Shown: positions 22,423-53,508 of the stretch, piece by piece
How positions within the stretch are numbered: the stretch's first letter is position 1
Layout: the number at the start of each line of letters is the position of its first letter
DNA from: Carpediemonas membranifera BICM
Taxonomy: Eukaryota; Protista; Fornicata
DNA length: 57,795 bases
Assembly (NCBI GenBank): GCA_019828565.1
Contig: JAHDYR010000054.1
Coordinates: 1 to 57,795 of the forward strand
Direction of reading: 5' to 3'
Program-made: the position numbers and the translations under genes
The notes under the pieces: model-generated
Seen by the model: only the letters and a program-made list of their open reading frames with translations
The model's database searches: none
What the model was told of the DNA's origin: nothing

Positions 22423-23470
22423 TGTGGGTTCGTGTAAACAAAGCTTTTACAAAGAATAGAGCTCGACACCCTGTGGTCTCCAAAAGTCCATAGGGTATTT
22501 AAGCCCATATTTTATCTCTAAACCTTCCCCTTTCTTCTTCATCAACCACAGTACTAGTACTTTCAAACGTATGAAGAACCCCAAGAATGACACCCCGATG
22601 CTCAAGATAGCTACTTTCGACGCTTTCAGCGCGTTCTACACCGAACTGTTGGATTACCGCGCCCTCGGCGGGAAAACCAAACTGGTGAAGCTCTTATCCG
22701 CCGAGGTGCGCTCGTTTGTGTGCCAAATGCTGGCCATTCCCAAGATAGACGAACCGACGCTCGCTGAGGACGATCCTGTCCTTCAGGACTTATCTGAAAA
22801 GAAACACAAGTCCAAGCTGAGAAAGTATGGCGAGAACGCAGCCATCAGTCGGCTTGCCTCCGTCCTGCGCCCTAAGCGACAGGAGCAATGCCTCAATCTG
22901 CTTCGAATGAAGCTATCATCTTTCACCCCGATCGAGGTCTCAAGGCTCAATACCAAGTTCAATAATACGCTCGCCTGCTTGGCTCTCGAAGAAGACGACT
23001 CTGTCATCGAAACATACCTCCGAGCCTTCGCGTTCCGCGGGCAGGCTCTGTATTTCCGCATCAAGGAGCGTACCACCGGGAAGTCGCTGGCAGAGGTGCA
23101 GCATTATGCCATGACCACAGCACAGGACCTCGCCGAGAGCGCCGCCTATATGGCTCCTCTCGCTGACTTCATCGGCAAGCCAGGCCATGACGATAAGCGA
23201 GCTCATGACGGCGACAAGCGAGCCCATATCGACGGTAAGCGCCCCAACAAGCGCCACGGTTAGCGGCCTGACAGGCGCGACACGCCTTACCGGCGTGACG
23301 ACAAACGTACACGCGACCACGACCGCAACCGGGGCGATAAGTCCGGTATCTCGTGCTTTAACTGCGGGCGTAAGGGCCACTACTCGAGTGACTGTTCAAA
23401 GCCAAAGGCGCGCTGCGACAAGTGCAAGAGGGAAGGCCACCTGGCACAGTTCTGCGACAAGATAAAGTCA
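22423..23470 (+). mobile_element. 3'-truncated Ty3/gypsy family B: 128-bp LTR (22423-22550), gag 22571-~23470 with two CCHC knuckles after a frameshift
   Basis: TGTGG...CCACA; gag homologous to the 25544 gag (DYRALGGK); CFNCGRKGHYSSDC, CDKCKREGHLAQFC. Confidence 0.85.
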
Positions 23471-25037: not shown

Positions 25038-25543
25038 GTGCCTCCATAGGCGCCACTGCCTGTTGATGCAGGGAAATGGTGGAACTGACGGGGGAGGAGG
25101 TGCTGTGGACGGGGGAGGAGGAGGCGTCGGTGACAGGGGAGGAGATTGAGGAGTAGTGGGATTTATGGTTGGATGAGGAGTTAGGACCTGTGGACCGGGG
25201 CGAGGATCCTTGATGGGTGGTTTCTTTTGGCTTAGTTTGAGTTCTTCGTGCCGGCGCGCTTCGGCTTCTTCCCGTGAAAACCCCGGTTGCCGCCGTCATG
25301 TCCGGTGCCGGGCTTGGTGTTCTTCTCGGTCAGGCGGGGGATCTCGGACAGGGTGCGGAGGACGAGAGTCTCGATCTCCGTCTCGTTCATCTCGTGGCGC
25401 TCGGCAAGGGCTGTGGTGGTCATAGACCACACTAATCATTTATACAGTTTAAGCCATTTATTGGCACAAGGGTTTTCTCTTCTTCTTTCCCTATAAAAGC
25501 ATTCTCCGCATTAGCGAGGCACATTAACGTTAATTCCCCTCAA

Positions 25544-28500
25544 ATGCTGAAGAAATCCGATCCCCCGTTGCTGAAGTCGCCAGATCTGAACGAACTGTTC
25601 ATCTTTGTGGACAAGTTCAACGATTACCGCGCCTTAGGGGGCAAGCGAGACATTGAGAAGCTAATCGACAGCGAGGTTCGGGAGATGGTGACAGCAATCC
25701 TACCAGCGGACGATCTTGACGACGCGGAGGAAGAGATCCCTCTCCTCCTTAATCAACATCATCGTGCCGCTCGCTCCAGAGCCCAGAAGGACCTCAAGAT
25801 CATCAAGCGCCTAGGACGCGCTCTCAGACCTACTCAAGAAGTCAACAAGCTCCGTCTCTTTAGAATCACCGCCAAGGACTTCTCCCCTATCGAAGTTGCT
25901 CGAGTCAACAAGAAGTTCCGTATTACCATGGCAGTCGTCCAACCCGAGTTCCCCCTCGAGACACTACGCGACATATACGTTCGTTGTTTCAAGTTCGGAT
26001 CCAACCAGACGATGTACCGCATCAAGGAGGTGATCCAGGACATGTCGCTAGAAGATGCCATGCCGCGCGTTCTAGCCCTATCCAGAACAGTCCAAGAGAG
26101 CACCGCGATCGCCAACGCGTTCCAGGACAAGCCGTCCAACGCCGAGCACCACCACACGAGCCGTAACTCCCACCGACGCAACGATCGCAAGCCTCAGTCA
26201 CGTCCCACCGAAGACCGTTCGCATGCTACCAGACCTGAACACGCGTCGACTAAGCCTATCGACAAGAAGGGCAGACGTGATCATTCACAGTTCACTTGCT
26301 ATAACTGTGGTGGTAAGGGTCACGCCGTCTACGAGTGTAAGAAGCCCAAGAACAAGTGTCAGAAGTGCGGGAAGAGCGGACACCTTGACAGGTTCTGTAA
26401 ATCCCCACAGTACTTGTCCTTGTTCTCGATGACTTCACACAAACGCAAAGATAGCCTACCTCTGTGCAAAGTTAAGGTCGAGGGTCGAGACGTCGTTGCC
26501 TTGATTGATTCGGGGAGCCAACTGCTCCACTATATCCCCCAAGCTGACCAAGGGTATGACGCGAATATCAGATGAAGAGCGAAGCGTGCGTACAGCCAAG
26601 GGAACTATACAGTCCCAAGGTTCCGTGCAAGGGAACATCAAACTCATGCCGTCAGCCTTTACACCTAAGGCAGTGTCCTTCAAGCCGGAGTTGATTGTGC
26701 TAGATACTGAGTTCGACGTCGTCCTGGGGTACCCCCACCTTGTCGAGCTGGGAATCCTCCCCGACGTGAACGTAGAGTCAGGGGAAGACTCGGACGAAGT
26801 CCAGGTCCCCGAAGCTTTCAAGCACAACGCTGCCATCTTTAGTCTATCCGACCAGTCGACCAAGAGTCAAGCCGAACTGATCAAGAGGTTCTCCGATCTA
26901 TTCCAAGACCGGGACGAACCTAGCAGGCTAGAGCCGTACGACCTCGTTCTGAAGGACGATCGGGTCGTGAACGCCAGACCTTACTATGTACCCCCAGCGA
27001 AGATACACGTCGTGAGAGAGCACATCGACACGCTGCTAGCCAAGAAATATATCGAGGCCTGTCAGTCACAATACGCTTCCCCAGCTATGACTGTGCCTAA
27101 GAAGGGAGGCAAGTCGCGTTTCGTAGTCGATTTCCGCCGTATTAACGAGCTTACTGAGCCGTTCGACTACCCCATCCCTCGTATCGACGAGGTGCTGTCA
27201 CAGCTCGCAGGACAGAAGATCTTCGCGACTCTAGACCTGTCGTCCGGGTACCACCAGATCCCTTTGACAGAACGATCAAGACCCCTGACTGCATTTACCA
27301 CCGTACTAGGGCAGTATCAATACCGACGGATGCCTTTCGGGCTGCGCAACGCAGGAGCTCACTTCCAGAAGGCCATGGAGCGCGCCTTCGCCGGGCTCGT
27401 GGGCAGCTCATGTTACATTTACATCGACGATATTATTGTCTTCGGCAGCGACGAGGCCGAATATCTCGCGAACCTCGAAAGAGTCCTGGACCGTGCGCGT
27501 AAGGTCAAGCTCCAGCTCAATCGCGAGAAATGCCAATTCGGCAGGCAGGAGGTCGAGTTCTTAGGTTGGGTTGTCAATGATGGGCAGGTGAGCATCGCAC
27601 CCAGCCGTGTAGACGACATCGCAAATCTCCAGATGCCGACATCCATCAAGGGCATGCAGGGCCTAGTAGGATTCCTCAACTATTTCCGGGATCACATCCC
27701 CCATTTTGCGGAAATCGGACACCCGTTAATCAAAGCTATGTCCGGTCACACAAGTCTCGGCCTGACCGCCCAGCAGGAGGCCCTCGATAAGCTCAAGCAG
27801 AGCCTTACCTCCGCTGACGCCCTAGCAATTTTCGACGCCACGAAGGAGCATTCTATAATGACCGACGCCTCGGGAGTGGGGTACGGCGCAGTCCTATTGC
27901 AAGAGGGCAAGCCTGTCTGTTACATGTCGAAGGCCTTCAACGCCACACAGTCTCGTTGGTCAACGATTGAGAAGGAGGCGTACGCCATTGTGGCGGCCTT
28001 GCAGCGCTGGCGCAAGTTCCTTGCCTGGGGACCTTTCTCCATACTCACTGACCACCGAAACCTTACCTTCATGTACCGTAGCATCAACCCGAAAGTCAGG
28101 AGGTGGGCCGATGCCATTTCCGACTTGGACTTTGAGATTAAGCACGTCGCCGGCCTGGACAATGGAGCCGCAGATGGTCTGTCCCGTGTGTTTACTATGT
28201 TCACTCGCAAAGCTACGACCGATGAGATTGAAGAAGCACACACCACCGCCGGCGCCCATCTATCTCGACGACTAACGACCGAGAAGCTTAGAGCCGAAGG
28301 GTTGTCGGTGTCGAGAGCCGCAGTCGACCAGGTGATTGCAGCTTGCCCGGTGTGCCAAGTCCTCGAGAGACCCCACGTCGATACACCGGATGGTCTGCAT
28401 ACCGCCGTTGATGAACCGTTTAAGCGAGTAGCCATCGACACCTTAGGTCCGTTCCCCAAGTCGCAGGGGTTCACGCACATCTCCGTCATCATAGATATGT

Positions 28501-29480
28501 GTAGTAGGTGGACCGAGTTGGTTCCAGTCACAGGTACGACTGCGCAAGCCGCAGTTACGGCGTTCGTTAATAACTGGGTCTTACGCTATGGCTGCCCCGA
28601 GGTCTTACAGACTGACGGCGGGCCCGAGTTTAACAATCAGCTCATGAAGTCCCTGGCCGACGAGATGGGTTTCCACACCCATGTTACGACTCCACATCAC
28701 CCGCAATCTAATGGCATCGTCGAACGGGCCAACAGTGGAGTTCTCAAAATCTTGAAGGCCAGAAAGTTCCATTTCCGGGACGCGGACTGGGTCAAGCACT
28801 TACCTGTCGCACAATTTATCGTCAATTCGACGCCCAGGATACCCACTCACCTCTCACCATCCGAGATCATACTAGGTGTCAACATCAGGATCCCGAACGA
28901 GATCATCATCTGCACCCACTCGACTAGCGCCAGAATACAGGACAGACGCGCGGCGGCTGGCCAAGCCATCCAGCTAGCGAAGGCTAGAATTCAGGCAATG
29001 AGAGAGGACGCTCTCGCAAACGCCGCATCGTCACGTCAGGAGTTACTGTGCCGGTTCGTGTTGGTCAAGTACCCAGCCAGACCTCCCAACAAGCTGATGC
29101 CAGGATGGCGAGGGCCCATGCGACGGGTCAGTGCGGTTAAGCAAGATGGCGTGACGGTCGCCTATGAAGTTCAGGACCTCAACCAGGGAAGCCAAGGCAA
29201 GATATTGAAGGTCGACGCCCCGCGCGTACGCAGATTTAACCCTGGCAATCTATCCGAGCGAGAGATCAAGGACTTGGCCGCCACGGCGAACGATGAGTGG
29301 GAAGTGGACCGTATTTCCAAATCGCGAGGGAACGGAACACGAACCAAACGCGAATACCGCGTTCACTGGTCTGGTTTCGAGGACGAGGAGGCGACATGGC
29401 AGGATTGGGACTCCGTCAAGGACCTGGAAGCATTAGATATATATTTGAAGTCTGACCAAGCCAAACTGGACGGTCTATAA
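25544..29480 (+). CDS. Gag-Pol polyprotein with one frame break at ~26515 inside the protease DSG motif
   Basis: Two CCHC knuckles; LIDSG; LDLSSGYHQ, MPFGL, YIDD; TDAS; HHCC, D..D35E integrase; GPM; WEVDRI...YRVHWSGF..ATW chromodomain. Confidence 0.95.
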
Positions 29481-32546: not shown

Positions 32547-33851
32547 TTAAAGTGGTGGTTGGAGAAGGATGGAGGCCAGGTGTCCCTGGACCCCCGGGTG
32601 TGTGCGGACCCCGTTGCCCATATATCTCAGCATGCTTTTCGTGGAGGCCCACGTCCCCATGGACAGGAGGACTTCGGTACTCGTGTGGGCTACCGCCAAC
32701 TCCGTGGTGGCGCCCTTGCGGAATGAGTGCCACGAAATGTCGGTGCCGTACGCCTGGTGGATCCAGTGGCGGAGGGTTGACGCCGGTAGCGGCTTCGATA
32801 GTGAAATACCACCGGTTGAGGTGATCGCCCGCCAGATGAGGTCGTCGTCGCGGCGCGTTGCCGTGGGGACCCATGCCTTCAGGGCCCTTGCTGGGTTAAA
32901 GCGGGCCCACGATTGGTTTGGTACCAGCTTGCGGACGCCTGTGGCAGTCTTAGTTCTCGCGAACAGAAGGAGGGCATTGCCATCAGCGTCGAACTCGACG
33001 TCTCTTCGTCTGAGCCCAAAGATCTCTGCGCCTCTACTCACGGTGATAAAGCAGAGAGCAGAAAAGAGGGCGGCCTGGAAGGCTTGGGGTGACTTCCGAC
33101 GTCTGTCTATGACCCTGCGGACTCTCGCGGACGTGACAGGCTTCGCACCCCCGGTCAGGCCTTCTACAGAGGCGACGTTCCGGGCGGCGGCGATTATCTG
33201 CTTGGCAGCGATCGGGGGGCGCCAGTCAGACACGAGTGGGGCGGCCTCGCAAATCCAGTAGCCTTTCCTGTGTATCGACTGTGGGCCCGACGTGGTACCC
33301 TCGGTCAGAAGGAACTCTTTGAGCTGTTGCGCGTGTGAGTGGCTCGCGTTGCGGGATTGGAGGAATTTGGCGACCCAGCCCGCTGCTGTGCGGCGCGACG
33401 ATTCGTTTCTGAAATGTGATAGTCGGTCGTCAGCGAGGAGGGCTTGGAACGGGTTTTCAGGATAAGCGCCACGAAGCGGATCTTGCCCTTGTCTGTCGCT
33501 GTCCAGGCTAGCTCGGACTGCAGGAGGTGTTTCGCCTGGACTCTGAGGTACAACTTGAGGGGTGTCAAACGTTTGATGGCTCGGACCTCGGGCGAGTTGA
33601 GGTCCGGGCACAGGACTATCGCCGCTGATCTCCAGTGTCGAGGGTTCCCAGTCTGGGTCGAGGCGCGTATTGTCTGGAGGCGACGACACGTCACTCCAAG
33701 AAGGGCTATAGGAGGAGCTATATAAATCCTGACTCCCCTCCAGTCCATCTGGAAGCCGTTGTCGTGGATTGACCAGGCTATTTCTGCAAAGCCTGGTAAG
33801 GCCAGAACCTTGTCGGGGCGTGCTGTGACGTCGATCTCGACCGGCCCCCAC
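32547..33851 (-). CDS. Tyrosine recombinase of family B (intact ORF)
   Basis: SRGAEI, RTKT, WHSFRKG, MGTW, LRY. Confidence 0.92.
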   Translation of the reverse strand: MGAGRDRRHSTPRQGSGLTRLCRNSLVNPRQRLPDGLEGSQDLYSSSYSPSWSDVSSPPDNTRLDPDWEPSTLEISGDSPVPGPQLARGPSHQTFDTPQVVPQSPGETPPAVRASLDSDRQGQDPLRGAYPENPFQALLADDRLSHFRNESSRRTAAGWVAKFLQSRNASHSHAQQLKEFLLTEGTTSGPQSIHRKGYWICEAAPLVSDWRPPIAAKQIIAAARNVASVEGLTGGAKPVTSARVRRVIDRRRKSPQAFQAALFSALCFITVSRGAEIFGLRRRDVEFDADGNALLLFARTKTATGVRKLVPNQSWARFNPARALKAWVPTATRRDDDLIWRAITSTGGISLSKPLPASTLRHWIHQAYGTDISWHSFRKGATTELAVAHTSTEVLLSMGTWASTKSMLRYMGNGVRTHPGVQGHLASILLQPPL

Positions 33852-35322
33852 TTGCGCATGATGGTTTCCAAGACTTCTCGGGGTGACGACCAGTCGAGCT
33901 TGGCGAACCTGGAGAGCCTGTCCGCCTGGACATTCAGGTGTCCGGCAATATGGAAGCAGTGGACGTCGAGGCGCTTGGTTTCTGCCGTGTTGTAGATGTC
34001 CTGTAGGATCTGGTGTGCGGCTGGGGGAGGTTCGGCGATCCCCGTCTGTTTACCCAGCTGATGGCAGCTGAGTTGTCGGCAAAGACTGTGAGAGAGGAGC
34101 GTGACTCCTGCTGGGGCACGAGATTGATCGCCTGAGCGATCGCGAAGAGCTCCTTGACGCCAATGTGTTCCCCCTTGAGATGAGGGGGGAAGGCACCCTG
34201 TGATGCCGCTCCCTTCTCCCCATTGAACAGGCATGCTCCCCAGCCGGACGTTGATGCGTCTGAGGTGACAGAAATCTGGAGCGTATCGCGTATTTCCCAG
34301 TCCGCTCTTGCTTCGGCGAACCTCTTGGGTGGGCGATCGCGGAGGAGGACTTGCCACGCCGCCAGCTGCCTGCGGATTTGGCTGGAGAGGTGGACGGTCT
34401 CCGTCGTAGGGGTGGCCTGCAGTGGTCTGAGTGCGAGGCGGGCGAACTGTGTGGTCCCTGCGAAGAATGACAGACGGCCTAGGAGCTTCTGCCAGTCTGA
34501 AGCTGTGATGGACCCGACCCGGAGGGCCTTGGAGATCGTGGCCGTGTAGGCCTCGGCCTTGTCTTTTGAGATTCTTAGGGACTCGCTTGCGGTGTCTATG
34601 TGGACACCTAGGTAGTCTACCTGCTGGGTCGGCGTGAGGACGCACTTGTTGAGGCCCGGTATCGCCCCCAGCGATAGCATGAGGTCGATGATCTGCGGGG
34701 TGACCGAAGCTAGGTACGATGGGGAGGCATGGGACACTAAGAAGTCGTCGAGATAGACCGCGATGGTCACCCCGAACCTGTGTGCGATGATCTTTGCAAG
34801 CTGTATGGTCGTGCTCTGGAACACGTACGGCGCCGCTGTCCATCCGAAGCCGAGTGTGTTGTACCTGAATGCGCGGCCGTCCGGTAGGACCACGCCTAGG
34901 AGGGGGGAGTCTCGCGAGGCGACGCCAAGTTGGTGGTATCCCGATGCTAGGTCTATCTTGATCATGTAGTCGTTCTTGTGCAGATTGCGGACCGCCCGTC
35001 TGATGCCGAACAGACGAAACACCCTCAGCTCTGCTGTCAACTCGTTCAGGGCTCGGAGGTCGTGCACGGGGCGGACATCGTCTTTGCCCTTCGACACCGC
35101 GAACAGGGGTGCGCTGTGACGCAGTTCGTCTATCGGGCACGGGGAGAGGACGCCCTTGGCGACTAGCTCTTCGATCTTCGGGAGTAGGCGGGGGTCCACT
35201 CGCCTTTGCGGTTCTGGTGGAGGGGGCGCAGAGGTGAGGTGGATAGGGACGCCATCCCGCAGCCAGCTTACTACCTCGGGGGAGGCACCGAGTCTTGCCC
35301 ACACCGGCCACTTTTTGTTCAT
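33305..35322 (-). CDS. RT-RNase H-MT-like polyprotein of family B (frameshift near 34025)
   Basis: KIDLASGYHQ, YLDD, SDAS, HIAGHLNVQADRLSR, IDVTA...YIAPP; the copy at 46380 has the extra G that restores the frame. Confidence 0.92.
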
Positions 35323-35879: not shown

Positions 35880-36131
35880 TCTGCCCGCATAAACTGCGCG
35901 GCTCGCCTGGTCGGCGCATCACCATGCCGGAGCGAGGCGATCTCATTGCCCTCCGCTCACGGCCCGTTACCCGAGGTAACCTGTCAGCGCGATGTAACGC
36001 CAGCCACCTGACCCTCTACACTCTGTAGATCCAACGGGGTTGTCCCGCCGGCCGAGGAGATATCATTAACTCCTAGCTGTCACCTCCCGTGAGGTCGCAA
36101 CAGCCTGCACCATAAACATCCCATCGAATGT

Positions 36132-37636
36132 TTACAGTGGCTTGCCCAAAAGAGACCTGGCGATGTCTCTCTGGACCGCGGGGTGCTGGCGGATGCCATT
36201 GCCGGTGTACGCCAGCAGGCTCTTCGCGGAGCGCCAGTTCCCCAGTGCCATCAGCACGTGCTCAGGAGTGCCGGCGACGGCGAGCTCGGTCGCCGCGCCC
36301 TTTCTGAAGCTGTGCCAAGTGACGGAGTCGCCAAACACTGCTGCGATCCAGCGCCTCATTGCGCCTTCTGACAGCCCCTCTGTCTTGATGATCGTGTCTC
36401 CGTTGACCTTCCTCCATAGTGAATCCGTGTCGCGCTTCGTGGCCAAGTTGACCCAAAGCTGGAGCGCCTTCGCGATGTTGAATGAGTCAAAGGTGGCGTT
36501 GACCACGAGCTTCTTCACCGCTGTGGTAGTCTTGGTGCGTGCCATGAACAGCGTCGCGTCGCCCTCTGGGCTGAACGTCACGTCTCCCCTCGTCAGAGTG
36601 AAGATTTCCTTGCCGCGGCTGACAGTTTGGAAGCAGAGTGCGGCGAACAAGACCGCCTGGAACGTCTTCGGATCTTGTTTCCAACGTCGGAAACCCGACC
36701 GGATTATGTCGCTCGTCACCGGTCGAGCCCCGCCAGTCAGTCTGGTGGTGGATGCTACGTTGCGGACTGATCGAATGATCTCGCTGCTGTCCTGCGGGGG
36801 GTCCAGTCGCAGATCAGTGGGGCCGCTTTGCAAATCCAGTGTCCCTTCTTGCCGATCGTGTCGGGCCCCGAGGTCTTGGCTTCGCTCATGAGGTGCTGCC
36901 TGAGCTGCGCCGCGTGTGATAGCGTGGTGTCTCTCGACGCGTTGAACTTGACGAGGTAGCCCGCGACTGCCCTGCGTGACGCCTCTAGGCTCAGATGTGA
37001 GAGCCTGTCGTGGTGGAGGAGGAACTCGAAGTCCTGATGATCATCGCGATGAGCCTTATCCTGCCCCTCTCGGCCAGCCGCGACAGCTCGGAGTCCGACA
37101 GAAGATCTTGGTTCACTCTGAAGTACATCTTGGGAACTGATGAGAGGGCTAGCAAGCGGCGGAGTTCTGGTGACGGGATGTCCGGAGTCACTATTATCGC
37201 AGCTGACCTCCACGTCTGAGGGGATCCAGTCTGGGTCGGCGACCGAATCGTCCGAATATGCAGATATGTCGCTGGAATCATCGCTACTGGAGGAGCTGCG
37301 AAGACTCTCATCCCCGTCCAGTCCCGAGACAGGCCGTGTTCTGCGAGAGTCCATCCGTGCTGAGCGAATCCTGGGAGGGCCAGGCGGCGAGTGGGAGCGG
37401 CGGTCGCGTCGACCTGCACTGGTCCCCAGTTGCGCTGGATTCGCTCGAGGACTGAACGCGGGGTCGACCACTCGAGCTTCATGAACCGGCTCAGCCTGTC
37501 CGGCTCCACGTTGAGGTGTCCTGCGATGTGAAGACATCGAGCCACGAGGTTTCTGCTGTCGAGGTGTTGTTGCAGCTCGTGGAGTAGGCTCATGACTGTC
37601 TGGTCTGCTCTTGTCGATCCGCCCTTGTTGACCCAC
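36132..37636 (-). CDS. Tyrosine recombinase, family A copy 2 (frame break near 36800)
   Basis: ORFs 36755-37636 and 36132-36833; HSFRKG. Confidence 0.88.
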
Positions 37637-38892
37637 GAGACTACGGCCGAGTTGTCGCAGAAAACTGTCAGGGTGCGCACCTGCGGCTGTGGAGAGATGA
37701 GTTCGATGCCCCGAACGACTGCGAAAAGCTCCTTTGTGCAGATGTGGGCGTTCACTATGTGCGGGGGGAAGTGCCCATGCGCCGATCTGTTGTTCTCTCC
37801 GAGGTATACTCTGGCCCCCAGCCGAAGCTGGATGCGTCGGACGCCACTGTCATCTCCAGGGGAGCCTGTCATGTCCCAGAGGGCCCTGAGCTCGATAAAT
37901 GACTTGGCTGGGCGCTGCTGCAGCAGTGAGACCCACTGGGCGAGCTCTTGCTTGAGGGCTGCATCCAAAGGTACTCTGCCTCTCGGCTGTCTTGCTTGCA
38001 ACGGCCGCAGCTTGAGCTGTGCTGCATGCGCTGCGGAAGCGAAGAAGGAGAGACGCCCTAGGATCTTGGAGTAGTCGACGGCGCTGATGGAGTCGCTCTC
38101 CAACGCGGATATCAACGTCTGCTGATACTTGCGCGCCTTGTCGCTGGAAAGGCGCACTGAAGTGTTCTCCGTATTGATGAGGAGGCCGAGGTACTCCAAG
38201 CAGCGTGTAGGCTGAAGAATACACTTGTCCAGCCCCGGAATGAGGCCGAGGGAGCGCATGAGCTCGAGGGCCTCGTGTGTTGCCCATGCCAGGTGCTCCT
38301 TGCGCGCAGACGATAGGAGGAAGTCGTCTAGATACACGCAAACGTGGATCTGGAGGCGCCTGGCGATGATCTTTGCGGCCTGGATGGTTATTGTCTGAAA
38401 GTAGAACGGAGCCGCGGTCCAACCGAAGGGGAGTCCAGTGTAGCAGAATGTCTCGCCCTCCGGAGTGACCACGCCCAGAAGTGTCCTGTCCTGCTCCCTG
38501 ACTGGGACTTGAGAGTACCCCGAGCGGAGGTCGATCTTCGTCATCCAGTCCCCGGCCGTGAGCGTCGCCAAAGCACGTTTGATGCCGAAGAGGCGGAAGA
38601 CTCGGGTCTCCTCCGTCACGGTGTTGAGTTCTCGGAGGTCGTGTATTACTCGGATGTCGTCCGAGCCTTTCGAAACAGGGAAGATCGGGGCCGAATGGCG
38701 GAGGGACTGCAGGGTCGTTCTGCGGAGAATGCCCTCGTTCAACAGCTGTTGGAGCTTGGCCCGAACACGTGGGTCCAGTCGCGTCTGTGGTGCGGCCGCC
38801 GACGGAGGCGCGGTCAGTGATATTGGAACGCCGTCTCTGAGAAGGCTGACGACGTGCTCTGAGGCGCCGAAGCGCTCCCAGAGTCGCCACAC
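36991..38892 (-). CDS. RT-RNase H-MT-like polyprotein, family A copy 2
   Basis: 633-aa open frame with YLDD; compensating indels at ~37815-37862. Confidence 0.93.
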   Translation of the reverse strand: MWRLWERFGASEHVVSLLRDGVPISLTAPPSAAAPQTRLDPRVRAKLQQLLNEGILRRTTLQSLRHSAPIFPVSKGSDDIRVIHDLRELNTVTEETRVFRLFGIKRALATLTAGDWMTKIDLRSGYSQVPVREQDRTLLGVVTPEGETFCYTGLPFGWTAAPFYFQTITIQAAKIIARRLQIHVCVYLDDFLLSSARKEHLAWATHEALELMRSLGLIPGLDKCILQPTRCLEYLGLLINTENTSVRLSSDKARKYQQTLISALESDSISAVDYSKILGRLSFFASAAHAAQLKLRPLQARQPRGRVPLDAALKQELAQWVSLLQQRPAKSFIELRALWDMTGSPGDDSGVRRIQLRLGARVYLGENNRSAHGHFPPHIVNAHICTKELFAVVRGIELISPQPQVRTLTVFCDNSAVVSWVNKGGSTRADQTVMSLLHELQQHLDSRNLVARCLHIAGHLNVEPDRLSRFMKLEWSTPRSVLERIQRNWGPVQVDATAAPTRRLALPGFAQHGWTLAEHGLSRDWTGMRVFAAPPVAMIPATYLHIRTIRSPTQTGSPQTWRSAAIIVTPDIPSPELRRLLALSSVPKMYFRVNQDLLSDSELSRLAERGRIRLIAMIIRTSSSSSTTTGSHI

Positions 38893-38927
38893 GTCGCCAG
38901 TTATCGATGGGAAGAGGTGGTTCTCGG

Positions 38928-39509
38928 TTAGTTTGACTGCCGGTTGCGACCGCGAGAGCTGCCGCCTCGGCCCCCGCCTCCCGGAGGCTGAAACTTGTCG
39001 CCCTTTCGCTTGGCTCCGTGAATCTTAGACTTGAGCTCGAAGGACTCGATCTGGGACTCGTCGAGGGTTCCTTTGTCCGCGATGACCTTCCATACCTGGT
39101 TCTGAAAGTAGGTGACTGTGACGTCGTTGTAATCTTCATCCTTCATCATCAGAGCTCTACGCCGGGCGGAGAGGAGGGGGGAAAGACGCCTGAGGAGTTT
39201 CGTGTCTGTAGAAGAGGTGAGGATCGTTTGAACCTTCCGAAGGAACTTCGCCTCCTCCAGAAGAGGGCGCTTCTTCGGCAGCTCGGTCATGGCCTCAATG
39301 TATGAAAGGGAAGCCATGATGGGGTCTTGTTCTTCTTCTTCAAACGCCAGTTCCTCGTGGAAATCCGCTTCAGATTCGGCGCTTGCGGCGGCCATCCTCT
39401 CGAGGATCTTGGTGGATCTCTCCAGAGCTTTCTGCATCTCCTGCACCGTGGTACGCAGTTCTGCCACTTCCTCGGCCGTCGCAGCCACCGGCTGCGAATC
39501 GTTCGTCAT
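38928..39509 (-). CDS. Gag-like ORF1, family A copy 2
   Basis: Four amino-acid differences from copy 1. Confidence 0.8.
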   Translation of the reverse strand: MTNDSQPVAATAEEVAELRTTVQEMQKALERSTKILERMAAASAESEADFHEELAFEEEEQDPIMASLSYIEAMTELPKKRPLLEEAKFLRKVQTILTSSTDTKLLRRLSPLLSARRRALMMKDEDYNDVTVTYFQNQVWKVIADKGTLDESQIESFELKSKIHGAKRKGDKFQPPGGGGRGGSSRGRNRQSN

Positions 39510-39622
39510 CTGGCCGCATAAACTGCGCCGACCAATCTTGACCAATGACGCGGGCATCCGGCGATTGCCGGCCTCGCCCACGTCCCGTCGCCCTTGCGAC
39601 AATGAGCTGGGGTACTACCCGC

Positions 39623-40393: not shown

Positions 40394-41621
40394 GGAGCTT
40401 GACCGCGTCTCTCTTAATGACTGGATTGCCATGGATGGTGAGGGAGGGGGTGTCGTCCTCTGAGACATAGGTGGTCTTATCGTTGGGCTCCAAGGATAGC
40501 GCTAGCATGCATGTCCATGCCGCCGTAAGTGCTGCCTCCAACCACTTAAGGGAGGGAGCTACTATTGTAATGTCATCAACGAACAGGACTGTGACAATCC
40601 AGGGAACGCACGGCCTTGCTGCCACTCGTCTCAGGGTCTCTATGTCGGGAGGAAGCTTCTCAATTGCTTCCTTCCCTAGAGCGGTTAAGCTTGCAATGAT
40701 GTGAGGGACTTCCGCAAGGTATCTTGTGAAGATGAAGGGAGCAGTGGTGCATCCTTGCCGTACTCCTGTGTTGGTAGCGGCGCTAGTGCTGCTACCTCGC
40801 ATAGAGATCCTTGTGTGCAAATGCATCTCCTTCAACATCTCAATGGCCCTTCTGTTCCCCCTCAACGAGTCCAATGCATCTCTCCTCGGGACACGGTCAA
40901 AGGCCTTAGCCACGTCCAGAGTCCCAATGTGGGTCGCTTTGAACCCACGTCTCGCGTGCTCAATAGCCCATAGTGCATCAACCGATGAAACACCCGGCCT
41001 TGCACCGTATTGTTCAGGGGGAAGAGGGTTGTCTCGGTCAATCGTGCGGATCATCATTGTGCCGAGCACCTTGTGGGCTGTGGAAAGTAGGGAGATAGGT
41101 CTGAACGCCACAGGAGCATCGCTAGTAGAGCCGGGCTTTTTCAATGGAATTACCACGGCGGTATGCCACTCTGCTGGGGTCTTGAGTTGGTCAATGCACT
41201 TCTGTAGCAGAGTCTTGAGCGCCTCCTTGAGGACTGGGCTATATTTGAAAATTGCCGGGGTTAGTCCATCACTGCCTGGGGCTGATCTATTCTTGGCAGA
41301 TTTGAGAGCCCCTTCCAGGAGAGTGTCCGTGATTTCGAGCTCTATATCGGGGCGAGAGATGGATGGTTCTACTGCTCCTGCCACATATGATACTGACGCA
41401 TACCACTCCTCGAAGGCCTTGGCTACTTCTTCTCGGTTGGTGATCACTCTGCCTCCTACTGTGGTGGTAGCAGGAAGGCCGGGTCCTCTGAGTAAGCCTT
41501 CCAGGTCTCTGCGAAGACCAGACACTCTGGCCTGCCCCTTCAAAAAGCTTCCAATGGACGTATCTAAAGAATTCAGGGGACATGACATCCATGCTCTCAG
41601 AGACTCGCTTGGCTCGGGCAT
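40394..41621 (-). CDS. LINE reverse transcriptase (truncated)
   Basis: SAPGSDG, FRPISLL, QYGARPG, LDVAKAFDRV, GVRQG, FVDD. Confidence 0.93.
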
Positions 41622-42948
41622 GGTAGGCTTTGAGTGTTGAGTGGGCGTGGCTCTCCGAGGATGCTAACGCTACTGATAGCATTGCTGATGATAGCTCAGA
41701 GCACACGAGAGCTTTGGGGCCTCTGCTCGTCCTCTCCTTGAGCTGATGTTGGTGGCGATGATCCTCAATGATGAGCTCATAGAGCCGTTCAGGGGAAATA
41801 CCGATCTGCTCTCCGGCGACAAACCAGTGGTCGTAGTCTTCTGCTCTCTCGACTTCTCTCACTTCATGTGAGGCCGCAGTGTCCACCAACGCCCATCGGT
41901 TGATAGTCGACGTCAGGCTTTGAAAGGCTTGGTCGACATCAAGGTGGCTGATGTTCCTCAGGAGAGTCCTCGCCTTTCGATGATCCTTGCTGCATTCAAG
42001 TACGTTAGCCACATGTCTTTCGTTGAGGACTGCTGTTGCCTTGCTCCTCGTGCGAAAGTAACCCGTTATGCCTGATCTTGCTACAACCGCTCTGTGTCCT
42101 TTGGGTTCAAGGGATACTGTGAGCGGCTTCTCGATGAGATCAGCCAGCTTAGGTGTTGCTGCGATGCCATCAATTACTCTGTCCATGAAGGTCGGGCCGT
42201 CGGGCACTACCAGTCTCAAGCCACACTCCTTTAGGGTGGTAGCCCACAGCGTCGATGGATCTAGTAGGTTCGTGTTGAAGTCTCCCATGACAAGAACTTG
42301 GAGCCCTTGCTCAATAGCTTTCTTCACCTCGGAGGACAGTAGAGTGTGGAACTCTTTCTTGGCTTGTGCTCCCGTGCATGGACTATAGATGGACATGACA
42401 CGGACCTTCAGTTTGCCAGCTGTTACAAACACGCAGCCTAGGTCAGCTTGAATCAACCTTGGAGAGTGGGGTTGGTTCTCGACGTATGTGCAGAGCTCAG
42501 CTAATTCCTTCCTCAGCATGATGCCTACGCCTAGATGCTTTGTCTCGGACTCTGACTTGATCACTCCGTGGTATAGCAGGACCTTGTCATTCGTTGTGGG
42601 CAGCTCCGGGGACTGGGCCCACCACCATAGCTCCTGAATGGCCATGATGTCCACGTCTTGTACTAGAGCAAGAGTCATCTTGGTGATGTTGAGTGATGTG
42701 CAATTCCACGAGTAGAGGTGACCATTTACTGGTCGTCTACCTGCTTGACTTCGCCCTCTCTGATTCCTGAAGGTCGCAGGCGAGACTCGCGTGGCTAAGC
42801 TTGGAGCTGGCGTGGAAGAAGCCGGTGGCTCAACCTCACTCCAGTTACCGTCGTGAGCTCGGGCACTCTGGAGAGCTTTGAACACCGGAGAAAGGTCCCA
42901 CGCTTCGCTGACCCATGCTGTTTCTGCCTTCTGTATGAGGGCATCCAT
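41622..42948 (-). CDS. LINE apurinic-like (APE) endonuclease
   Basis: SWNC, AIQE, GVGIML, IYSP, MGDFN, IDGI, GHRAV. Confidence 0.88.
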
Positions 42949-44332
42949 GTCTCCCTCGAGTCATGGGCCCTCTCAGTCTGACTTTGCGGAGCCCTCGCAC
43001 TGGCTTGTTGGGGATTCTCGGGACTAGAAACCAATGATCCGGCGCTCTGTAGGACCTCTTGACTACTCCTTTGGAGTTGTCTGCCGAGGGAGGAACGTTG
43101 AGAGCCAGAAGCTCTGCAGCAGATTGCGGTAGGTCTCGGTGAGGAGGGCACTCCCAGTAAACTTGCTGAGCCGTCAACTGATTGCTGAAGGAGCTGTCGT
43201 TATTCACCGTCGCTATCCTGATGAATGGCTGTTCTAGGCTGTTTGGAGGGACTATGCCTGCCGCATCCGCCACCGCTATCATCTTGGCAAGAGGATCAAA
43301 CCATTCCCACCCTCGCCGAGCTGGGCTCCGCACTGCAATAAATTGACGGCGCGTCATAGCCTGTCTGGCCCTATCACCTGTGGGGAAGGAGCAGCCACCC
43401 TTAGGTGCTATTACGTACTCCTTGAGGATGTGGTGCAGCTCCTCAAGCGTTGGCAGGTGGAGGTCTTGGAGTAGTAGCACGGCCAGGTCGGGCAGGAGAG
43501 AGGACCAGTTGCCGATGAGGACATCCAAGTCTTTCCTCCATGCATCAGTGATTTTTTTCTTTTCAGAGTACGTGGATGTGATAGCTCCCCTAGATGTTCG
43601 GTCGAGACATGAGACTGTGTGCAGTACCGCCGCGAAAGCTACAGTGTCACTGAGAGCACAATGGTAGCCTGGATCTGTTCCAATGTGGTACGGGCAGGGG
43701 CACTTCACCATTGTGAGACATTGGGCTATCGACATCGCCTCAGAGAACTCGGGTGAACGGCAGTAGTCATGGATATGCCCAAAGGATCTTTTGTCTATGG
43801 ACTCTAGATCACTTATGTCATAGACCTTGTCAAGGAAGGGGGCATCGCTTTCCGAGACCCATGACTCTAGGACGGAGTTCTCAAGTCTCGGGTCTTTGGC
43901 GACCATGATGCAGTTCGGGAGGGAGCTCACTATGACCGTGAGGTGGTGAAGCCAGTCGGTCGGGCTGGGGAATGAGATCCCGGGGTGGTCGGGGTGTACT
44001 CTGAAGCTCATGGGAGGACACCCATGAACAACTGCCGCTTGGTATAAAGCTGTCTGCATTAACTGCGCTGGGATATCAACTTCTAAGCCGCCCCAGTGGA
44101 CCCCTGCGACGTCCCACATCATTATCCCCGTTTCAGGATCCTTGACGCGGGCTAGGAGTGTGGCGCCGGCCTCTACGGGATATGAGACGCGACTCTGTTT
44201 GGTGGCTCTGCGGTCTACGGCAGTTCCTAGTCCTTCAAAGTCGACCACTAGGATATGAGAAACAGGACCCTCTCTCTTGCCAGACAAGCCTATGAGAGCG
44301 CCATGGACGCCATCACGGTTGTTGCGGGCCAC
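42845..44332 (-). CDS. DEDDh 3'-5' exonuclease-like domain protein
   Basis: VVDFEG...PVE, CPYH...HCALSD. Confidence 0.6.
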   Translation of the reverse strand: MARNNRDGVHGALIGLSGKREGPVSHILVVDFEGLGTAVDRRATKQSRVSYPVEAGATLLARVKDPETGIMMWDVAGVHWGGLEVDIPAQLMQTALYQAAVVHGCPPMSFRVHPDHPGISFPSPTDWLHHLTVIVSSLPNCIMVAKDPRLENSVLESWVSESDAPFLDKVYDISDLESIDKRSFGHIHDYCRSPEFSEAMSIAQCLTMVKCPCPYHIGTDPGYHCALSDTVAFAAVLHTVSCLDRTSRGAITSTYSEKKKITDAWRKDLDVLIGNWSSLLPDLAVLLLQDLHLPTLEELHHILKEYVIAPKGGCSFPTGDRARQAMTRRQFIAVRSPARRGWEWFDPLAKMIAVADAAGIVPPNSLEQPFIRIATVNNDSSFSNQLTAQQVYWECPPHRDLPQSAAELLALNVPPSADNSKGVVKRSYRAPDHWFLVPRIPNKPVRGLRKVRLRGPMTRGRHGCPHTEGRNSMGQRSVGPFSGVQSSPECPSSRR

Positions 44333-44478
44333 ACTAGAGGGGGCGCTATCGAGGCCTCCAGCGGCGATGTTGTTGCGAGCCTTACCTTACCAATGTCGCT
44401 AGCGGTGGTGTGTATGGTTAAAGTGCGCACCGTGGATCTCCACGAGGAGTTAAGATCCACTGTACCATTCTGGATGGC

Positions 44479-44986
44479 CTAGTGCCTGGGGGTACACCAC
44501 CCATGCCCTGACCCACGCCACCTAACCGGGGTAGACAGCATGGACTTAGTCACTTTCCCCGCCTTCGGGTAGGCTTCTTAACAGAGTCGAGGGGGCATGG
44601 AATTGGGGAACCGGACAGACGAGAGGGTGCCGTGGCTGAACGGCTCTACAAGGACTGCAGGGAAGCAAGGAGTGTCATAGTCAAGGTTCTGCAGGACGAT
44701 CCTGCCTGTCAATGCCCCGAGGACAGACCCCCAGGCTCCCCGGATAGTTGCCGGACTTTCAGGGAGACAGGAAAGCATATTTGCACGGAGATGGCCGCAG
44801 GGCCTCTGGGGCGATTGGAATCGGCTTTCCGCGGAGACAGTAGCACCGAAAGCCCAAGGCAAACGCTGCTGACCAGTTTGCCACGGGAAATAGGCAGTAC
44901 CCCGGGGCACTCAGTTCCAAGACAACGGGAAACAAGCTCAGTCCGGGGTCAGAATCCAAGCACCATAAATTTCTTTCTTTTCTTTC
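44479..44986 (+). mobile_element. 5'-truncated LINE 3' end (~0.5 kb) with (TTTC)n tail and 18-19-bp TSD, inserted antisense in the larger LINE
   Basis: TGTACCATTCTGGATGGC at 44461-44478 and 44987-45004; encodes a C..ETGKHIC Zn-knuckle-like motif. Confidence 0.88.
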
Positions 44987-45004
44987 TGTACCATTCTGGA
45001 TGGC

Positions 45005-46186
45005 GGAGGCAAGTTTCGACACGGCTTCTCGTCTCGTCAGGCCCGTCATACCCAGAGAGACAGCAAGTGAGTGAAGGCCACAGTTGCCGTCGGCGTGAAC
45101 TGGGATGCTCATGAGAGGGCCCCAACGGGCGTTAGGCTCCTCAGCTACGATCGGGGATGATGGATAAATGCTGTTCTCTTCGCAAGACGATATTTCTTTC
45201 CGAACCTGCCGCGCAACCTCTTCCACGCTAACAGGGATCGGGCTTGCGAGCTCAACATCAGAGTTTGAACAGGAACTTATGGATATAGTAGAGTCATCGA
45301 CTGGATAGGCCTTCCGGCGAATGGGAGAGATAAGGCTGTCTGATAAGGTATTCGATAAGGAAGACTGAAGGTCGGCCGCTGTGGCTCCACCCCATTCGGC
45401 ATAAAGCTCAGTCATCGCATGTCCTCCCAACACGGGAGAGGCGCCATACAGTAAGTGGATTACCTCGAGGCCCATGAACGGCGTGAGGTTGAGACCATCC
45501 GGAGATACAATGGGGCCGGGCCGGCCGGAGTGAGCGATGCGGGGACCAAGAGGCTCTCTTTGACCGACTGCCTGCCATGTCAGGCTCGGAGAGTTCGGGA
45601 CAGTGGATATGGTTGGAGGCCAAGGATCGTTCCGTTGGTCTAACACTGTAGGGCATCTGGCGGAGATGAAATCTGCGAACTTGCTCCAGTCCATGCTGCT
45701 AGCTGGGGGGAGTCCCGTGAACCTGCAGTGGATTAGGGCAGCCTTAAGCGTTCCAACCGTGTGGACAAGATCATAGGCAATGAGGGGAAAGAGTTTGAGG
45801 ATACCTTCCCGGATGGAGAGCCCAAATGCAGCTGCAAGGTGCTCAGCATCTTGGAGTAGGTCATTACAGGCATCCTTAGCCCGCTTATAGCGGGCGTTGT
45901 CCCGTTTTAGGTTTGGGATTGCCACCGAGACGAAATTGCCCGTCGATGAGTGTGTTGCAAGCTCAGTTTTGAAGGGATGGATGATTACGGGGTCCCCAAT
46001 AAAGGCAATGCCTGCTAGTAGTTGTCTTTTGAGGACAGGAGGGGCGGATGAAACATATTTGAGGTGCTTCCTCGTCAGGAAGCGTTGGTCGGCGATACTG
46101 CTTTGAGCAGCAGTGGTACTTTGTGGTTGCGGACCAGTGTCTTTCGCTAAGATTGGGCCTCTGTAGCCAGAACTACTTTTGCCCAT
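45005..46186 (-). CDS. LINE N-terminal ORF with an OTU-like cysteine protease motif, interrupted
   Basis: MGKSSSG... start; IPVHADGNCGLHSL. Confidence 0.6.
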
Positions 46187-46206
46187 GGTGCGGAAAATTT
46201 TTTTGC

Positions 46207-47798
46207 CTTGCGCATGATGGTTTCCAAGACTTCTCGGGGTGACGACCAGTCGAGCTTGGCGAACCTGGAGAGCCTGTCCGCCTGGACGTTCAGGTGTCCG
46301 GCAATATGGAAGCAGTGGACGTCGAGGCGCTTGGTTTCTGCCGTGTTGTAGATGTCCTGTAGGATCTGGTGTGCGGCTGGGGGGAGGTTCGGCGATCCCC
46401 GTCTGTTTACCCAGCTGATGGCAGCTGAGTTGTCGGCAAAGACTGTGAGAGAGGAGCGTGACTCCTGCTGGGGCACGAGATTGATCGCCTGAGCGATCGC
46501 GAAGAGCTCCTTGACGCCAATGTGTTCCCCCTTGAGATGAGGGGGGAAGGCACCCTGTGATGCCGCTCCCTTCTCCCCATTGAACAGGCATGCTCCCCAG
46601 CCGGACGTTGATGCGTCTGAGGTGACAGAAATCTGGAGCGTATCGCGTATTTCCCAGTCCGCTCTTGCTTCGGCGAACCTCTTGGATGGGCGATCGCGGA
46701 GGAGGACTTGCCACGCCGCCAGCTGCCTGCGGATTTGGCTGGAGAGGTGGACGGTCTCCGTTGTAGGGGTGGCCTGCAGTGGTCTGAGTGCGAGGCGGGC
46801 GAACTGTGTGGTCCCTGCGAAGAATGACAGACGGCCTAGGAGCTTCTGCCAGTCTGAAGCTGTGATGGACCCGACCCGGAGGGCCTTGGAGATCGTGGCC
46901 GTGTAGGCCTCGGCCTTGTCTTTTGAGATTCTTAGGGACTCGCTTGCGGTGTCTATGTGGACACCTAGGTAGTCTACCTGCTGGGTCGGCGTGAGGACGC
47001 ACTTGTTGAGGCCCGGTATCGCCCCCAGCGATAGCATGAGGTCGATGATCTGCGGGGTGACCGAAGCTAGGTACGATGGGGAGGCATGGGACACTAAGAA
47101 GTCGTCGAGATAGACCGCGATGGTCACCCCGAACCTGTGTGCGATGATCTTTGCAAGCTGTATGGTCGTGCTCTGGAACACGTACGGCGCCGCTGTCCAT
47201 CCGAAGCCGAGTGTGTTGTACCTGAATGCGCGGCCGTCCGGTAGGACCACGCCTAGGAGGGGGGACATACTGTGAAAGTCGGCAGATAATCTACGATTTT
47301 TTCTAGATAATCTAGGGTTTTTAGGCCCTAGATTATCTAGAAAAAATCGTAGATTATCTGCCGACTTTCACAGTATGAGTCTCGCGAGGCGACGCCAAGT
47401 TGGTGGTATCCCGATGCTAGGTCTATCTTGATCATGTAGTCGTTCTTGTGCAGATTGCGGACCGCCCGTCTGATGCCGAACAGACGAAACACCCTCAGCT
47501 CTGCTGTCAACTCGTTCAGGGCTCGGAGGTCGTGCACGGGGCGGACATCGTCTTTGCCCTTCGACACCGCGAACAGGGGTGCGCTGTGACGCAGTTCGTC
47601 TATCGGGCACGGGGAGAGGACGCCCTTGGCGACTAGCTCTTCGATCTTCGGGAGTAGGCGGGGGTCCACTCGCCTTTGCGGTTCTGGTGGAGGGGGCGCA
47701 GAGGTGAGGTGGATAGGGACGCCATCCCGCAGCCAGCTTACTACCTCGGGGGAGGCACCGAGTCTTGCCCACACCGGCCACTTTTTGTTCATTGACGG
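46207..47798 (-). pseudogene. Internal RT/RH fragment of YR family B
   Basis: Near-identical to ~33852-35328; split by the MITE. Confidence 0.92.
47266..47377. mobile_element. 112-bp MITE: perfect 52-bp TIRs, 8-nt loop, apparent 1-bp TSD
   Basis: CATACTGTGAAAG...CTTTCACAGTATG; empty site at 34901-34910 shows only one A duplicated. Confidence 0.93.
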
Positions 47799-51619: not shown

Positions 51620-53508
51620 TTACTCGGGAACTCCACGCTTAACGTCCTCGGCATCAACAACTCTCTTTTCGCGATCCTTATCGACTGCCTTGCGCTTGAT
51701 ATAAGTCGTATGAGCCTTTCTCTTACCACCCTTTGAACGTTTGCGGACAAATAGCGTCGCATGCTCATCCTTGACGACCACAATAGCTTGCGCCGCAGCC
51801 ACATCTTCATCAGATCCACGCCGGACCATGCCGGACTCATAAACTTCCGTCAAATGCATCCGCACAATATACTTGTCATGGTACGTCAACATCTTGACCC
51901 AGATAACGACTACAGTCTTGCTCTTCAGAGCTGACCAGGCCATGACACCAAAGTTGCTGTACCAATCAGTGGCATCGTCGAACATCAGGGTGGGCACGAA
52001 CACGTTAGACGTCTCAAGCCTCAGCCTCTCGCCAGCATCGGAGAATCCCCAGGCGCGCACCTCCTCCCTCACTGCTGCCACTTCCTCTGCCGCAAACTTC
52101 TTGTCGAACTCGCCATTCTCAACCTTCTGCAGGCAGTAGCCGATGCACAATCCATCCGGGTTGACTGCAATCTTCCGCCAACTCTTACGATCTTTGAGAA
52201 CTCGCTCGCCTACCTTGTCGTACTCCACGTCGATGTACTTCTGCCTATCAACGTCGCTCCGTAAGTATATCTGCATAGGGGGAACATTGGCAGGCGTCGG
52301 AGAGTGCTGTTTGATGATAGCCTTCATCTCTGGCGACAGACCGAGGTCGAGAGGTGGGACCGTTATGAACTTCTGGCCCCCGTACCTCATCATGGTGCTA
52401 TTGATCCGAGTCCATAAGGCTCCAGTCACATTGTTCCTCTGGAACAGTACCATCAAGGCAGCGAGAGGAACGTAGCGGTCAAGCTCCACTGTTGCCTCCT
52501 CGGCGCGCCTGACAAGCTCAGCCCAGTTGTCCTCGAGTTCATCGGCGAGCGCTTCAAGCCCAGCCTCACTCGCGCGTGCCAACTCTGCTTGAGTAAACTG
52601 ATGGATCGCCTGATCCTCGGCCTTCTGCTGACCTAACTCAGCTTCAAGTCTCTTCTGGGACTCCTCAGACTCTCTGTTAGCCTGTTCAAGCGCCTCCCTC
52701 GCCTCCCTCTCCTCAGCAAGCCGTTTTATCAAGGGGCTCGTACTGCTCCAACAAGCGCACAGACTCAGGGACATCATCAAGGCCTGCAATGGTGTCGTCT
52801 AGCTGCTGAAGGAGAGAACCAACGGTGTCTGTGTCGTCCACATCAGACTCTACGTCGATGTCTTGATCAGTCTGGGGCAAAGGAACGCCGTCACCCCTGC
52901 ATGGCGGCCGGTTCAGAGTGGTCATCAGACTCGGACTCGTCAGTGTCGGAAAATTCATCGTGTGTCGTGGACTCTGCGTCGACAACCGGAAGCGGCTGAG
53001 GGGCAGCAACGACGGCAGAAGGCTTGGTGGCTGCTGCTGAGTGGTCCTGGGCCCGGACTAACTCCTCTTGGACCTTCATCAGAGCAGCAGTCGATGAGGC
53101 GAGCTCCTTCTCAAGACGAGCGATCTTCCTCTTCAGAGGAGCTGACGGATCGAGCGAACCGATCTTAGCCAACTCCTCGGCCAGCTTCTCTGAGCCAGCG
53201 AAGGACAGCTTCTTGCTGAGCTGGGCGTGGGCGATAAACTGGCCAAATTGGCCTGCCGGAACACGAGAATCGAGTTTCTTCGAGTCCTTGTGGCGCAACA
53301 CAAGGTGGAATGCGCGGTAAATCTCAACCTGCTTCTCAACAGGGAGCGAGTCGACGCCGACTAGAGCCTTATGAACAGATTTGGCGGTGAAGTGGTCACA
53401 AAAACTTCCGTCGGAATGCCTCAATTGTGTCGGGAGAGTCAAAGTCGACCTCGCAGAGGTAGTTGCGGTTAGTTGCGTCACATATCGCGCGTAGTTTGGC
53501 AACTCCAT
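51620..53508 (-). CDS. Coiled-coil/acidic protein with C-terminal OTU-like protease (frameshifted)
   Basis: IAVNPDGLCIGYCL...VVVKDEHATLF (D-x-x-C...H). Confidence 0.55.

Follow-up and report, generated by a model that had tools for sequence, protein, structure and literature searches.

We identified a predicted 3'-5' exonuclease domain in a long interspersed nuclear element (LINE) of Carpediemonas membranifera BICM. The domain lies on the minus strand of contig JAHDYR010000054.1, which was analyzed as one stretch of 57,795 nucleotides (the window), upstream of the apurinic/apyrimidinic endonuclease-like (APE) and reverse transcriptase (RT) domains of the element. On the basis of a structural model, its fold is established as DEDDh (DnaQ-like, RNase H-like). 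The best explanation of its role, which we put forward tentatively, is that the exonuclease destroys host small or double-stranded silencing RNAs. The LINE would encode a zinc-binding DEDDh-fold domain, predicted to be an active 3'-5' exoribonuclease, and this enzyme would degrade the small or double-stranded silencing RNAs that the host aims at the LINE transcript.

43607..44266, minus strand: predicted DEDDh-fold 3'-5' exonuclease domain (fold model, profile and invariant residues)

The predicted catalytic residues are D, E, E, H and D, with codons beginning at 44242, 44236, 43882, 43663 and 43648, and the predicted zinc ligands are E, C, H and C (codons beginning at 44173, 43696, 43687 and 43660). 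All of them are invariant in 7/7 sequences. These seven sequences are 23-54% identical and share 24 invariant columns out of 220, which include all 8 D/E/C/H residues of the four exonuclease motifs plus a ninth acidic residue, an E at the place of Exo II; such conservation exceeds what chance motifs would show. The motifs listed in a preliminary description of this DNA are all present on the minus strand: VVDFEG (44248-44231), YPVE (44182-44171), CPYH (43696-43685), HCALSD (43663-43646) and, further upstream, HADGNC (45097-45080). The D-x-E of Exo I (D17 and E19) falls in the first strand of the model (residues 12-25), and the H-x4-D of Exo III ends with D215 in the last helix. The acidic residue of Exo II, assigned by position, is the invariant E that follows strand 127-131 (a DEED variant). 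The E-C-H-C ligand pattern is complete at the sequence level, with E40 in strand 34-50 followed by C199, H202 and C211. For the exonuclease domain, the ratio of nonsynonymous to synonymous substitution (dN/dS) falls in the range 0.11-0.15, similar to the values of APE (0.12-0.18) and RT (0.09-0.11), in the three pairs formed by the related elements L001, L002 and L003, two of which are near saturation at synonymous sites. Judged by codon substitutions, the exonuclease domain is under purifying selection in these sister families. The nuclease is likely active.

The AlphaFold (AF2) model was built from a 7-row alignment and reached a pLDDT of 68.9 and a pTM of 0.71, whereas the single-sequence model reached a pLDDT of only 33. 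All 33 Foldseek matches listed are DEDD-fold proteins (RNase T, MAEL, DinG, TREX, ERI and oligoribonucleases), and the highest query template-modeling (TM) score among them belongs to Drosophila MAEL (0.47). These results bear out the preliminary claim of a DEDDh exonuclease upstream of APE-RT, as well as the DEDD fold predicted for it. In an exhaustive structural alignment, RNase T (Z 9.7, root-mean-square deviation (rmsd) 4.2, 164 residues aligned), the DinG exonuclease (Z 9.7) and 3'hExo (Z 9.6) came first. DnaQ epsilon subunits and the QIP structure each scored Z 8.9 against the model. Drosophila MAEL scored Z 8.8 (rmsd 4.1, 164 aligned) within an overall range of 8.2-9.2 for MAEL structures. 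The arenavirus nucleoproteins (NP) followed, Lassa NP with Z 7.3 (rmsd 3.9, 132 aligned, 20% identity, the highest of the 50 matches listed) and that of lymphocytic choriomeningitis virus (LCMV) with Z 7.1. A second structural comparison gave the same picture. When the homologue P0001 was used to query the Atlas, exonuclease clusters scored 0.92-0.93, with giant-virus exonucleases first (0.93); arenavirus NP ranked ninth at 0.91 (137/256 features shared), below the same-family mark, and MAEL was unlisted. The Atlas structure search with P0001 gave TM scores of 0.55-0.63, and 9 of the 10 matches listed fell in clusters carrying PF00929.

Membership of the Maelstrom or arenavirus subfamily is suggested rather than established. 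The link is drawn because of the E-C-H-C tetrad that defines those proteins and not from the nearest-neighbor result. Thus, of the earlier label "arenavirus-NP/Maelstrom-like", the zinc-type residues stood, but the fold scores tied with or fell below those of RNase T, DinG and 3'hExo, and no profile matched. The tetrad also guides the functional reading. Entamoeba MAEL is described as degrading single-stranded RNA and Lassa NP as a 3'-5' exoribonuclease, both with DEDD and ECHC residues (PMC4408791). In arenaviruses, the exonuclease is tied to immune suppression and not to proofreading (PMC7968707), and TbRIF4, a DnaQ-type 3'-5' exonuclease, is reported to act on small interfering RNA (siRNA) duplexes in trypanosome RNA interference (RNAi) (PMC3359990). 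We propose an RNase that blunts RNA silencing because both characterized DEDD plus ECHC proteins are exoribonucleases, the arenavirus one is tied to immune evasion, and siRNA duplexes are a target of a DnaQ-type enzyme. The substrate is probably RNA; an anti-silencing job is a possibility that we hold with some doubt.

The main rival is that the exonuclease acts in cis, trimming the 3' end of the LINE RNA to its simple-repeat tail, or trimming 3' overhangs of target DNA, in the style of RNase T or TREX. RNase T is the top fold match, the tails of L001 and L002 are (TTC)n and not poly(A), and one layout of the family fuses the exonuclease to APE. In addition, 3'-end processing has been proposed for the DEDDy open reading frames (ORFs) of bdelloid retroelements (PMC6431247). 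However, the lead of RNase T over MAEL is less than one Z unit, and differences below 1 count as a tie by the rule of the aligner. RNase T is not known to have an E-C-H-C tetrad, and other repeat-tailed LINE clades are not known to rely on such a domain. We consider action in cis somewhat unlikely and continue to prefer the destruction of silencing RNAs.

The linkage of the domain to the LINE was evaluated in its relatives. HMMER, run against the full set of 1.84 billion representatives, returned 5 matches, 4 true and 1 false, and a profile search added 2. The false match was P0003, a frog phosphatase; it was dropped, as was P0013, a fragment without the exonuclease domain. P0001, a protein labelled Carpediemonas membranifera, carries exonuclease and APE in one frame and ends shortly past APE. 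Its residues 140-578 align to the exonuclease frame of the window (46% identity across 469 columns, the exonuclease among them) and its residues 584-879 to the APE frame (39% identity), and P0001 and the window are colinear over about 760 codons. Metagenome contigs were also scanned, which yielded 5 loci out of 74 candidate stretches, all from one assembly. In each of the five, a long ORF1 whose C-terminal part resembles a coiled coil contains the exonuclease domain, and an APE ORF2 follows; three continue through RT, and the other two end at contig ends. The exonuclease-linked elements are 6-9 kb long. The exonuclease-APE linkage is a family trait with two arrangements, since the domain sits either in a coiled-coil ORF1 or directly ahead of APE as an in-frame fusion, and the expectation that other APE-RT copies are linked to the exonuclease was confirmed. 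No exonuclease relatives were found in viral contigs (0/26 stretches), prokaryote genomes (0/17) or PHROGs, and a word-index search near domain length returned 0/1514 candidates. Two further 849-aa Carpediemonas membranifera proteins, P0012 and P0014, carry the same domain; they belong to one cluster, lie on different contigs and are probably ORF1-type copies.

These relatives bear on the idea that the ORFs of the window are unrelated pieces joined by nested insertions. The region is transposon-rich, with DIRS-like, gypsy-like and retro-insert fragments nested in one another. Nevertheless, the single frame of P0001, its colinearity and the linkage kept in 5/5 other loci refute the idea for exonuclease and APE, and as a general account it is very improbable. 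It is possible solely for the N-terminal and OTU-like part, where the similarity to P0001 is not significant.

The two layouts also bear on two other functions. If the exonuclease proofread the cDNA made by RT, the fused layout would place it on the RT polypeptide, and DnaQ epsilon subunits do share its fold. Proofreading is nonetheless disfavored because, in 5/5 loci whose context is visible, the domain sits on ORF1, apart from the RT protein; other LINEs of 6-9 kb are not known to proofread. We regard it as quite improbable. Only slightly less so is the idea that the domain chiefly binds RNA or forms a capsid-like module within the LINE particle, in the manner of animal Maelstrom or arenavirus NP, and that catalysis is secondary. 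The domain accompanies a coiled coil in ORF1 in five loci, and animal MAEL is described as binding single-stranded RNA (PMC4408791). However, all five predicted catalytic residues are invariant in the LINE domain, whereas animal MAEL lost them. The destruction of silencing RNAs stays our preferred reading.

The preliminary description had asked where the RT belongs in a phylogeny. The three best matches of the window RT among 69 others are the RTs of L001-L003 (108 bits vs 101), and it is 28% identical to ORF2 of L001 and of L002. In RT trees, a single branch sets the 4 exonuclease-linked RTs apart (SH-aLRT 83 in a quick tree of 70 rows, and 93/82 with 30 of the 70 rows), a weak, unstarred grouping that carries a long-branch warning and neither demonstrates nor contradicts a single origin. 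Outside the exonuclease-linked set, the best matches are at most 35% identical, in a comparison without curated LINE-clade references. The RT thus groups weakly with L001-L003 and is assigned to no named clade (L1, RTE, I, Jockey or CR1). Two features of the related elements were noted in passing. A block of the 3' untranslated region (L001:9195-9538 and L002:11545-11894) is 77% identical over 355 nt, vs 70% in the ORF2 region, which suggests a structured RNA element; Rfam gave no match in the 5 metagenome loci. Directly upstream of the L002 LINE, L002:739-2199 is an ORF for a protein-primed-type DNA polymerase B (PF03175), and a Polinton-like element is possibly the insertion site of this LINE.

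Several observations weigh against a Maelstrom- or arenavirus-type silencing suppressor carried on one LINE protein. Neither MAEL nor arenavirus NP scores above RNase T, DinG or 3'hExo, and no recognizable arenavirus protein is among the 50 BFVD matches listed. Pfam matches none of 5 domain sequences at E <=10, including by PF13017 and PF17290, and no PDB sequence matches the domain. The middle acidic residue is E and not D. The zinc loop is poorly modeled, with pLDDT <50 at residues 193-198 and 206-209. All relatives come from two assemblies plus that of the window. Many LINEs function without an exonuclease of this kind, and none of 66 RT relatives lists such a domain in its Pfam column, a source that does not detect this domain. 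Finally, exonuclease and RT were seen in one frame nowhere.

The copy in the window extends on the minus strand from 46206 to about 40394, as bounded by self-alignment, and is made up of the following parts.

40394..46206, minus strand: copy of an APE-type non-LTR retrotransposon, truncated at its 3' end (self-alignment, junctions and domains)
46184..46186, minus strand: likely start codon in the context CACCATGG, 20 nt inside the 5' junction (read from the sequence; its usage is presumed)
45121..46186, minus strand: N-terminal region of about 355 aa, without a match in Pfam, PHROG, the exonuclease profile or the ORF1 N-termini of relatives
42971..43606, minus strand: conserved region of about 210 aa directly after the exonuclease, in continuous alignment to P0001
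42052..42957, minus strand: APE endonuclease and leader, with motifs SWNC, QE, YSP, GDFN, IDG and GHR (PF03372, E 9.5e-8; 39% identity to P0001)
40394..41534, minus strand: non-LTR RT with FVDD at 40583-40572, ending past the last core motif (PF00078, E 1e-20)

Exonuclease, APE and RT follow one another in that order in three separate frames, and the succession of APE and non-LTR RT is that of APE-type non-LTR retrotransposons. The range given earlier stopped at 46186, whereas the element starts at 46206, and the long ORF that lies beyond 46186 is part of a DIRS-like element; 46186 is the first ATG past the junction in the ORF that holds HADGNC. The 5' flank is a DIRS-like RT-RNase H region, in which 46207-47265 repeats 33851-34908, and the 3' flank is a repeated block, in which 39625-40393 matches 21958-22726 (both from self-alignment). 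The 3' end of the LINE is missing: the copy is cut at about 40394, directly past the last RT motif, with loss of its tail and target duplication. Without its 3' end and with an insertion inside it, the copy is unable to transpose. Neither the post-exonuclease region nor the N-terminal region showed detectable homology to ORF1-type families (hhalign probability <1%). The N-terminal region was also considered as a second, decayed exonuclease; the weak tblastn similarity (E ~0.3) was absent among the profile matches at E <=10, and this candidate was rejected.

The frames of the LINE are separated by breaks, two of which lie between exonuclease and RT.

42958..42970, minus strand: frame break between the linker and APE frames, beside GGG and CCC runs (P0001 residues 140-578 and 584-879 align in different frames)
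41589..41616, minus strand: likely frame break between the APE and RT frames, in a short GA/TC repeat (the frames overlap; the exact place is approximate)

From exonuclease to RT there are two frame changes (small indels), and the roughly 1,140 codons alignable to relatives contain no stop. Near-identical DIRS-like copies in the window (17845-21467 vs 36003-39622, and 33851-34908 vs 46207-47265) differ by 6 single-base indels in 5,874 aligned columns. Every one of these falls in a homopolymer run, a pattern that suggests errors of long-read sequencing throughout the window. This rate predicts about 2.7 indels in the LINE, and 3 breaks were seen, counting one upstream of the exonuclease. The breaks in the LINE may be read errors or recent damage. 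The family of the window copy likely makes one long protein, consisting of the N-terminal region, a protease-like remnant, the exonuclease, APE and RT. P0001 documents the exonuclease-APE fusion, and an APE-RT fusion is the rule for ORF2; the N-terminal join is presumed. The earlier proposal of one long polyprotein is upheld for exonuclease and APE and is likely for the rest of the protein.

Upstream of the exonuclease, the preliminary description had placed an OTU-like protease. This region proved to be interrupted.

44987..45120, minus strand: N-terminal half of an OTU-like domain, disrupted, with HADGNC (45097-45080) and two predicted helices (from the motif)
44479..44985, plus strand: 507-bp retro-insert in antisense orientation to the LINE, with ATAAA and (TTTC)n at its end (19-bp direct repeats on both sides)

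The 507-bp insert is a separate retro-insert, because it is flanked by a 19-bp duplication (44460-44478 and 44986-45004), a second partial copy (a 3' piece) at 9636-9704 has its own 13-bp duplication, and a contig of run X1 shows another flank. This contig is identical to 44476-44766 and then runs into other sequence. Run X1 was the one run listed (share 0.06), no RNA data set was among the matches, and its coverage is confined to the insert and the DIRS flank. The insert was also considered as a coding LINE 3' end; it has no blastx match, and only the terminal ATAAA and repeat resemble L001 and L002. It begins 31 codons past HADGNC and splits the OTU-like region from the exonuclease. Hence, the contiguity claimed earlier applies to exonuclease, APE and RT, but not to the OTU motif and the exonuclease.

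The HADGNC context fits the OTU consensus, and a D-G-N-C loop with the catalytic Cys followed by a helix, as is characteristic of OTU proteases, is found at 45097-45053. The DGNC pattern has a single occurrence among 115,586 six-frame positions. A complete domain with an in-frame catalytic His is precluded by the 507-bp split. A His-Phe strand lies about 10 codons past the insert in a different frame, whereas the presumed counterpart of this interval in P0001 is about 85 residues long; the window copy lacks the central part of the presumed domain. The half-domains, the only queries available, had no match in Pfam, PDB sequences or the Atlas. Shuffled sequences matched P0001 residues 1-40 as well as the OTU half did in 162/5000 cases and residues 1-135 in 1147/5000, so that neither similarity is significant. 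The motif is absent from all ORF1-type relatives. In summary, the motif claimed earlier is real but the domain is not intact; an OTU ancestry of this region is somewhat favored, and OTU function in the window copy is next to nil.

Elsewhere in the window, the ORFs at 7891-9189 (plus strand) and 51623-52798 (minus strand) each terminate in a domain in which a DGxC motif precedes a His, and by eye both domains look OTU-like. Their mutual kinship is clear (0/5000 shuffles as good), and no OTU family of Pfam matches them. They sit among kinase, PHD and SET-like ORFs, in two regions that share 94-95% identical stretches. These DGxC domains are a possible, weak candidate for the donor of the protease-like part of the LINE (23/5000 shuffles). 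The window holds other mobile elements. At 25436-29480 (plus strand), a gypsy-like element combines a gag-like ORF with a 991-aa pol whose frame is open and which carries RT, RNase H, integrase and chromodomain. A perfect inverted repeat of 52 nt, separated by an 8-nt spacer, is inserted in a DIRS-like RT at 47266-47377; the other copy lacks it, and it resembles a miniature inverted-repeat transposable element.

It is possible, though on the doubtful side, that a protist LINE lineage encodes its own RNAi suppressor, an active exoribonuclease of Maelstrom/arenavirus type that moved between ORF1 and a deubiquitinase-APE-RT polyprotein, and whose mobile copies may serve as a reservoir that connects cellular Maelstrom with arenavirus and giant-virus exonucleases. 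If true, a fold of host silencing would have been turned against the host. Enzymatic counter-defence proteins are common in viruses and scarcely known in LINEs. The conserved, apparently active DEDDh/ECHC nuclease is a small expressible domain with which destruction of silencing RNA could be tested against processing of the element's own ends. It also brings a mobile branch into the debate on how the Maelstrom and arenavirus exonucleases originated, and its fused layout indicates that the domain was retained when moved out of ORF1.

Among the literature matches listed, none places a DEDDh or Maelstrom-type domain in a LINE, in a survey that had Repbase Reports, supplements and most subscription journals outside its scope. 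The main text of PMC8516963 contains nothing on retrotransposons or RNAi. An OTU domain on a LINE is already known and is not new here. The Josephin domain of Dualen/RandI, the OTU domain of Symbiodinium ORF2p and the OTU and APE domains of Helentrons likewise place a protease-like domain ahead of APE-RT (PMC13405545, PMC6431247), whereas the LINE of the window has only a disrupted, unconfirmed OTU remnant. TbRIF4 (PMC3359990) and Neurospora QIP are DnaQ-type 3'-5' exonucleases that act on siRNA duplexes; unlike the LINE-encoded domain, both are host factors that promote silencing, and TbRIF4 is likened to it by description and not by sequence.

The protist MAEL nucleases (Entamoeba EhMael; PF13017) resemble the LINE domain in their DnaQ fold, catalytic acidic residues and E-C-H-C tetrad (PMC4408791, PMC2628886). 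However, the LINE domain is encoded by a retrotransposon and not by the host, has E at Exo II, does not match PF13017 and is only 8-16% identical in structural alignments. The C-terminal exonuclease of arenavirus NP (Lassa 3r3l and LCMV 4o6h; PF17290) likewise combines DEDDh and ECHC in a selfish RNA replicator, with 20% and 17% identity; it differs in scoring lower Z than cellular DEDDh enzymes and in giving no HMM match, and the LINE lacks the NP core domain and has a retroelement context. The bdelloid LTR elements Juno and Vesta and the Athena/Terminon elements also captured a 3'-5' exonuclease, a DEED variant with a Cys-His-Cys motif in some (PMC5408684). Theirs is an RNase D-like DEDDy enzyme in a separate downstream ORF of LTR or Penelope-like elements, whereas the non-LTR element described here carries a DEDDh domain in ORF1 or fused to APE.

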